Source: Escherichia coli (GTDB lineage: Bacteria; Pseudomonadota; Gammaproteobacteria; Enterobacterales; Enterobacteriaceae). Taken from it: a DNA stretch of 64,000 nucleotides. Of this stretch, positions 14,082 through 14,720 are shown piece by piece. The notes beneath the pieces are model-generated. The model saw only the letters and a program-made list of their open reading frames with translations, was not told the DNA's origin and did no database searches. Location: NCBI RefSeq assembly GCF_013122565.1, contig NZ_CP053258.1; one strand, given 5' to 3'. A program made the position numbers and the translations under genes. Within the stretch, counting starts at the first letter, position 1; every line of letters begins with the position of its first letter.

Positions 14082-14498
14082 TCAAACCATCACCAGTGAT
14101 AACTCTTTGCCAAGCGCCTTAGCCGCGAGCTGGACGGCGTCGATTTTTGTCGCATGGTGCAAGTTAAATAAACGAGTAATTTCCTGTTTAGGTTTGCCAA
14201 TTCTCCTGGCTAACTCTTGCTGAGTGATTTCTGACTGTAAAAAAGCATTTAACAGCAATACCTTAGAGGCGACGCTCAAAGGTACTTCAATAAAATGATC
14301 GTGACTATTTAATGGCGAAGGTAACGGGATAAGCTCGTTATCTTCAAAATAAAAATCAAATGCGGTCAGTAAAGCATCTTTTGCCGCTTCCATCGCTTCA
14401 GCGACAGTTTCGCCCTGGGTCAACGCTTCAGGGATATCCACAAAAGAAACCATATAACCGCCTTCCGGCGCGGGTGTAAGAGTGACGGGATAACGCAT
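14082..14498 (-). CDS. hicB: HicB antitoxin
   Basis: ORF 14082..14519 trimmed to the internal MRYPVTLTPAPEGGYMVSF start (138 aa as I recall); C-terminal HTH-like region; directly downstream of hicA. The start could instead be the upstream ATG at 14519. Confidence 0.75.
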   Translation of the reverse strand: MRYPVTLTPAPEGGYMVSFVDIPEALTQGETVAEAMEAAKDALLTAFDFYFEDNELIPLPSPLNSHDHFIEVPLSVASKVLLLNAFLQSEITQQELARRIGKPKQEITRLFNLHHATKIDAVQLAAKALGKELSLVMV

Positions 14499-14543
14499 AA
14501 TTTCGACTGTCTCTCGCATGTCATTAACCTTTTTAATTGGCGA

Positions 14544-14720
14544 TTAACTCAAACCGAGTTGTTTCTGGATTGCTTTACGCAATGGTTCTTTAATCTCATC
14601 GCAGGGGTGACGCGGCATGACACTGCGCATCCCATGAAACCTGACTTTCAAATGGTTGCTGCCATTCGCTACATCGACGCCCTGAGATTCGAGCCAACGT
14701 CTGAACTCGCTTTGTTTCAC
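14544..14720 (-). CDS. hicA: HicA mRNA-interferase toxin (58 aa, GTG start)
   Basis: Not in the ORF track. Hand translation of the minus strand from GTG: (M)KQSEFRRWLESQGVDVANGSNHLKVRFHGMRSVMPRHPCDEIKEPLRKAIQKQLGLS then stop. Confidence 0.75.
   Translation of the reverse strand: MKQSEFRRWLESQGVDVANGSNHLKVRFHGMRSVMPRHPCDEIKEPLRKAIQKQLGLS

Follow-up and report, generated by a model that had tools for sequence, protein, structure and literature searches.

Where does the antitoxin of this locus begin, and is its toxin still a working one? The window (the whole 64,000-nucleotide stretch of Escherichia coli DNA that was analysed) carries two adjacent minus-strand genes, the second of which can be read from either of two start codons. 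The first, hicA (14720..14544), opens with GTG, seen on the plus strand as CAC at 14718-14720, closes with TAA at 14546..14544 and encodes 58 aa. It is in the ORF list, and RefSeq has the same 177-nt CDS, which bears out the GTG start given in the initial annotation. The long frame of the second gene, hicB, runs from an ATG at 14519 to a TGA at 14084..14082 (14519..14082, 145 aa, protein beginning MRETVEIMRYPV). The RefSeq CDS starts instead at the second in-frame ATG, at 14498, which is the eighth codon of the long frame (14498..14082, 138 aa, MRYPV N-terminus). The coordinates previously proposed for both forms are right. hicA lies upstream of hicB on the same strand, and the gap between them is 24 or 45 nt, depending on the ATG chosen.

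The neighboring gene yncJ (14942-15172, plus strand, 76 aa; Pfam DUF2554, E=6.5e-53) lies outside the operon. It is divergent from hicAB, as initially annotated, with yncJ and hicA head-to-head and 221 bp apart. A REP-type palindromic element directly follows the yncJ stop (15176-15212; Rfam naRNA4, 28.8 bits, below the 59.5-bit gathering score).

That hicA and hicB are not a chance pair of open reading frames follows from the RefSeq annotation and from the breadth of conservation: 1301 bases around hicAB match 5415 of 5426 complete E. coli genomes, and the best matches are 99.9-100% identical. RefSeq gives the gene order ydcR, hicB, hicA, yncJ, rlhA, for which the K-12 MG1655 counterparts are b1439, b1438, b4532, b1436 and b1435, respectively. 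HicB is 100% identical to the crystallized K-12 protein (PDB chains 6HPB_B, 6HPC and 6U0I_A). HicA matches K-12 HicA at 55 of 58 residues (95%; 6HPB_A, E=3.3e-34), and RefSeq names both proteins, so the earlier identification of the pair as hicAB stands. The locus comes from a non-K-12 E. coli and is its chromosomal hicAB operon, a toxin-antitoxin module of type II. The system is known and well characterized: its structures have been solved and its two-promoter circuit worked out. The choice of hicB ATG is a small matter beside this, mostly one of annotation accuracy.

Domain searches give the same picture. HicB matches HicB_lk_antitox (PF15919; 32.8 bits, cut-off 27) and HTH_3 (31.4 bits, cut-off 23), and thus has an N-terminal partial RNase H-like domain followed by a C-terminal helix-turn-helix (HTH). 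The HicA_toxin profile (PF07927) is matched over positions 3-58 of 58 with 24.8 bits (E=2.3e-5), a near-threshold miss of the 27-bit cut-off for a very short protein. This sub-threshold score is unimportant given the near-identity to the crystallized K-12 protein, and near relatives bear a precomputed PF07927 match. An NCBIfam scan of HicA and of both HicB lengths returned no match, and PADLOC returned nothing for HicA and only marginal HTH-type matches for HicB.

Compared with the K-12 system (b4532/b1438; 6HPB, 6HPC, 6U0I), the operon has the same chromosomal position, gene lengths, GTG start and Shine-Dalgarno (SD) sequence, the same P2 -10 and palindrome, and an identical hicA-hicB spacer and 7-codon extension between the two hicB ATGs. 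The HicB protein is identical, encoded with nine synonymous changes and a TGA stop in place of the K-12 TAA. HicA differs by L26V, R31M and L52Q.

The literature describes K-12 HicA as an mRNA interferase that acts independently of the ribosome and has His23 as its only known catalytic residue, and K-12 HicB as a fully folded antitoxin that covers His23 and represses the operon through a C-terminal HTH dimer. By its identity to K-12, HicB here would be both antitoxin and autorepressor. By analogy, HicA would be an mRNA interferase toxin of the dsRBD fold, with mRNA cleavage and growth arrest carried over from K-12. The HicA features conserved in the literature are a catalytic His on strand beta2 and a Gly in the beta1-beta2 loop. 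Both are kept, as H23 and G20, each of which is shared by 85 of 87 relatives.

How is the pair regulated? According to reviews, K-12 promoter P1 has a CRP-S site, is activated by CRP-Sxy and produces an mRNA from which both HicA and HicB are made. P2 is held down by HicB acting at the operator hicO, and excess HicA relieves this repression. The P2 transcript has a leader that starts just 1 base ahead of the hicA ribosome-binding site (Turnbull & Gerdes 2017, as cited in PMC11878559). Since the leader starts so close to that site, the P2 mRNA yields HicB only. Our placement of promoter and operator rests on these reviews and on a reading of the DNA itself. An extended -10, TGATATACT (14739..14747, minus strand), ends 8 nt before the hicA SD GGGAGG (14730..14725) and is the probable P2 promoter. 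A transcript starting ~7 nt past this -10 (about 14731-14732) would begin 1 base before the hicA SD. A generic sigma-70 scan missed P2, which has no -35. Just upstream of the -10, a repeat search found a perfect 7-bp inverted repeat, GTAAACA-N4-TGTTTAC (14753..14770), a candidate for the HicB operator hicO. The extended -10 with a palindrome beside it fits the published description of P2.

P1 and its CRP-S site were not placed: the CRP-S consensus TGCGA-N6-TCGCA (≤ 2 mismatches) has 36 matches in the window against 41 expected, none of them in the hicA-yncJ spacer. A terminator scan found nothing between hicA and hicB or after hicB, and an Rfam search of 13900-15300 found nothing in the operon. 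Should the K-12 mechanism carry over, as the near-identity of the two operons suggests, CRP-Sxy-dependent P1 mRNA would supply both proteins. Excess HicA would then derepress P2, and the resulting HicB-only transcript would restore antitoxin excess despite the toxin-first gene order. The plasmid system hicA^T^B (Lin et al. 2025, PMC11878559) is similar in its toxin-first order, separate hicB ribosome-binding site, 24-bp intercistronic gap, two-promoter logic and short P2 leader. However, the plasmid operon has an intercistronic terminator hairpin, whereas the operon in the window has no hairpin or terminator there and instead has an SD and an extra ATG.

The hicA start itself is a conserved feature. 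The SD GGGAGG (14725..14730, minus strand) stands 4 nt before the GTG and forms an anti-SD duplex of -11.1 kcal/mol. Among the orthologous loci examined, 22 still have hicA (from Escherichia, Citrobacter, Salmonella, Pantoea, Serratia, Brenneria, Superficieibacter and further contigs), and in every one of them the aligned first codon is GTG, preceded at 4-5 nt by GGGAGG, AGGAGG or a related G-rich SD-like element. What is conserved in the toxin gene is thus the combination of a weak start codon, GTG, with a very strong SD only a short spacer away. Four related contigs (L021, L022, L024 and L027) have an intact GTG-started hicA that is absent from their stored gene calls, which agrees with the remark in the initial annotation that hicA is missing from the ORF track. 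The calls do include hicA in two loci with an intercistronic hairpin (L025 and L028) and in one with an upstream ATG at -30 (L026). It seems that hicA is systematically under-called in loci of the Escherichia-Citrobacter type. An out-of-frame ATG-TGA start-stop overlaps the GTG (GGAGGCGATGTGAAA, 14717-14722, minus strand). It is probably incidental, being present in Escherichia only; the relatives have CAGTG.

So, which ATG starts hicB? The annotation record has moved. The 2006 K-12 record began hicB (then ydcQ) at the upstream ATG and the 2014 record 21 nt downstream, and tetracycline-inhibited ribosome profiling (TetRP) lists ydcQ among genes with a new start at +21 (PMC4909307 and its Table S2). 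In three independent cultures the TetRP values were 75.25, 18.81 and 14.38 at the 138-aa start and 0, 0 and 114.99 at the 145-aa (2006) start (PMC4909307 Table S2). The replicates thus disagree between the two starts, and the signal is not confined to a single one. These values rest on few reads, as they are quantized and are simple fractions of one another (75.25 = 150.5/2). Few TetRP reads are to be expected for hicAB, which is too weakly expressed for quantification in standard profiling. For HicB, Table S2 of PMC4909307 records no N-terminal peptide, the supplements of Giess 2017 have no hicB entry, and a full-text literature search for diagnostic HicB N-terminal peptides and for 6U0I returned nothing.

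Structures and gene calls are likewise divided. The PDB has both lengths: 6HPB and 6HPC contain the 138-aa form, whereas 6U0I contains the 145-aa form with a 3-residue tag added. Automated gene calls favor 145 aa (cluster P0003, 1372 members) and NCBI uses 138 aa (cluster P0005). The ambiguity first noted from the two open starts is therefore real, as the annotation shift, the PDB entries, TetRP and the gene-call clusters all reflect it. In the AlphaFold2 model of the 145-aa form (mean pLDDT 91), a strand-strand-strand-helix-strand core is followed by helices; residues 1-5 have pLDDT < 50 and the first strand begins at residue 9. The Pfam HicB profile begins two residues after the downstream Met (MRYP).

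Comparison across genera is informative. Within the 24-nt hicA-hicB spacer (14520..14543, minus strand), an SD-like AAGG (14531..14528) lies 8 nt before the ATG at 14519, and the extension MRETVEI (14499..14519, minus strand) follows, up to the ATG at 14498. The duplex at the upstream SD is -3.4 kcal/mol in E. coli and -3.4 to -7.4 kcal/mol in relatives, and an AAGG or GAGGT element stands 7-8 nt before the upstream ATG in loci of the Escherichia/Citrobacter/Raoultella type. The downstream ATG has no SD within 5-10 nt, just a GAG 13 nt away (-3.0 kcal/mol).

Two architectures emerged from a set of one genome per species and contigs encoding HicB relatives. The type with an upstream ATG occurs in Escherichia, Citrobacter, a Raoultella-labelled MAG and several contigs, and its hicAB adjoins ydcR wherever the flank was examined. 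An in-frame ATG lies at -21 from the MRYP codon in 11 distinct sequences, and at -18 in one further locus, an in-frame 3-nt variant. The 11 sequences align without gaps and show no variation in either ATG, in the AGG of the SD or in the GAG that follows the upstream ATG, while extension codons 4-7 diverge (mean top-base frequency 0.67).

The encoded peptides (MRETVEI, MRGTVEI, MREAVEI, MRETVKI, MRESQII, MRDFTEI, MRDFEKI, MRDLEKI, MRDFENP, MRALPET, MRGVPQI, MRGVPKI and the six-residue MREFEI) have no amino-acid conservation past Met-Arg. In 16 Escherichia sequences, nucleotide diversity between the hicA stop and the MRYP ATG (45 nt) is 0.021, versus 0.165 at synonymous sites, and the only two extension polymorphisms, E3G and E6K, are both nonsynonymous. 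Codon 2 (14513-14516, aligned L005-L033) is always CGA or AGA, rare Arg codons, which keeps the GAG after the upstream ATG invariant. The pattern suggests that the extension is constrained at the nucleotide rather than the peptide level, as expected of a translation initiation region. A weaker suggestion is that the GAG may, from a distance, act like an SD for the downstream ATG. Predicted folding is no more stable than in shuffles around the hicB starts (z = +0.56) or the hicA start (z = +1.34), which leaves start-codon occlusion by RNA structure unsupported.

The second architecture occurs in Salmonella, another Citrobacter, Superficieibacter, Pantoea, Serratia and Brenneria. These loci have no upstream hicB ATG, and Pantoea has an in-frame TAA at -9 from the MRYP codon. 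About 15-45 nt after the hicA stop they carry a GC-rich hairpin, AACCAGCCC-TCCG-GGGCTGGTT (L007, L012-L016, L025 and L028), and there is no obvious SD before hicB. They resemble the plasmid hicA^T^B in its intercistronic terminator hairpin (PMC11878559). The more distant orthologues examined, which lack the upstream ATG, all start at MRYP, which marks MRYP as the family-wide and ancestral HicB N-terminus, with the Escherichia-Citrobacter lineage having gained an SD-led ATG seven codons upstream. The conservation of this unannotated upstream start across genera is the modest annotation point that we add here.

Do ribosomes then start at one ATG or at both? We regard the account as a whole (a hicAB operon with a two-promoter circuit, a conserved GTG and SD at hicA, and use of both hicB ATGs) as very probably correct. 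That both hicB ATGs are used, giving 145-aa and 138-aa HicB, is the most economical reading of the start evidence, though its chance is by itself about even. A ribosome recruited by the upstream SD would meet the ATG at 14519, and the ATG at 14498 would be used too. In this hicB would be similar to genes with two near in-frame ATGs, each with initiation-complex signal. It differs from them in that its isoforms vary by seven disordered residues, with no functional distinction known or predicted. The two forms, differing by a disordered tail that appears unconstrained in sequence, are probably functionally equivalent.

Initiation at 14498 alone, with HicB always 138 aa, is possible but falls clearly short of an even chance. 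RefSeq and the 2014 K-12 record use this ATG, as do all hairpin-type orthologues; TetRP favors it by a median ratio of 38.6, with signal in all three replicates; and 6HPB, the structure of the HicAB complex, was obtained with the 138-aa form. The unconstrained sequence, predicted disorder and exclusively nonsynonymous polymorphisms of the extension point the same way. The upstream ATG and SD would then be kept as an initiation region rather than a productive start, and might, with a similarly limited probability, serve for ribosome standby or loading, or as an unstructured A-rich leader. However, this start has no SD within 5-10 nt, whereas the upstream SD places a ribosome at ideal spacing for the ATG at 14519, which is invariant and always in frame, even in the 3-nt indel variant. 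In TetRP replicate 3, moreover, the upstream ATG has eightfold more signal.

We consider it improbable that Escherichia-Citrobacter hicB begins mainly or exclusively at 14519, which would make HicB 145 aa and the 2014 re-annotation wrong for the clade. TetRP is zero there in two of three replicates and has downstream signal in all three, the E. coli SD is weak (AAGG, -3.4 kcal/mol), and the amino acids of the peptide are not conserved after Met-Arg. On the other hand, this ATG has the sole correctly spaced SD, the two being kept together across genera, and the frame is always open, with a length that varies by multiples of 3. Automated gene callers choose it (P0003), the 145-aa form was crystallized (6U0I), and TetRP replicate 3 agrees.

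A more evolutionary proposal, which we offer tentatively, is that in Escherichia-Citrobacter the ancestral intercistronic hairpin was replaced by an SD and a new ATG, so that HicB is mainly or substantially a 145-aa protein that is missing from current K-12, RefSeq and UniProt annotation. If true, the balance of antitoxin to toxin could be set by the start ratio, or by the 7-residue tail itself, for instance if the tail alters protease susceptibility. Regardless of the details, both N-termini are worth bearing in mind when HicB is cloned, tagged or quantified.

Is the toxin still functional? The initial annotation called for an alignment to look for inactivating changes in hicA. The ORF is intact and keeps G20 and H23; the clean result is qualified by two unusual substitutions. 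Position 31, here M, is K or R in 79 of 87 cluster representatives and never M. Position 52, here Q, is L, I, V or M in 84 of 87 and never Q. As both positions are strongly conserved, toxin activity of the V26/M31/Q52 allele (WP_001612987.1, found at ≥ 99% identity in about 40 of 5382 E. coli genomes) is not assured from sequence.

The module may therefore be decaying here, with an attenuated or inactive HicA and the locus acting as an orphan HicB repressor, a reading that we consider unlikely. The three hicA differences from K-12 are all nonsynonymous, and hicB has nine synonymous changes plus the stop swap and none that are nonsynonymous (Fisher p = 0.0035 with the stop swap as a tenth synonymous change, ~ 0.0045 without it). 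M31 and Q52, absent from the 87 representatives, and the repeated inactivation of hicA beside an intact hicB elsewhere in Escherichia would fit such decay. Against this, the ORF, GTG start, SD, G20 and catalytic H23 are all intact, and RefSeq names the identical protein HicA toxin.

The inactivated alleles are of several kinds. A 22-nt deletion within hicA (= window 14582-14603) occurs in L029 and L038, where RefSeq marks the gene as frameshifted and hicB is intact; in L029 (50EVA), HicB is the common WP_001270286.1. L003 has a 1-nt frameshift in hicA and L005 has W9*, both with an intact hicB. Among 16 Escherichia sequences, pN/pS is 0.05 for the hicB body (pS 0.165) and 0.23 for hicA. As read from these alleles, hicA is independently inactivated in several Escherichia lineages, and hicB is kept under strong purifying selection.

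The full operon is present in 4253 of 5382 E. coli genomes, and a clean 444-bp deletion (= window 14321-14764) is found in about 1130 of 5382 complete E. coli genomes. This deletion removes hicA, P2 and the 5' two-thirds of hicB, and leaves a 3' remnant of hicB next to yncJ. Carriers include UM146, GN06667 and several clinical (bloodstream and UPEC) isolates, with the deletion at 1739 in L030 (NZ_CP147587.1). Both the unusual HicA substitutions and the repeated loss of hicA are in keeping with the way chromosomal toxins generally decay.

In strain Res13-Lact-PEB14-36 (L033, NZ_CP062863.1, 1097-1297), an IS1A element has inserted between hicA and yncJ at a point upstream of the promoters of hicAB.
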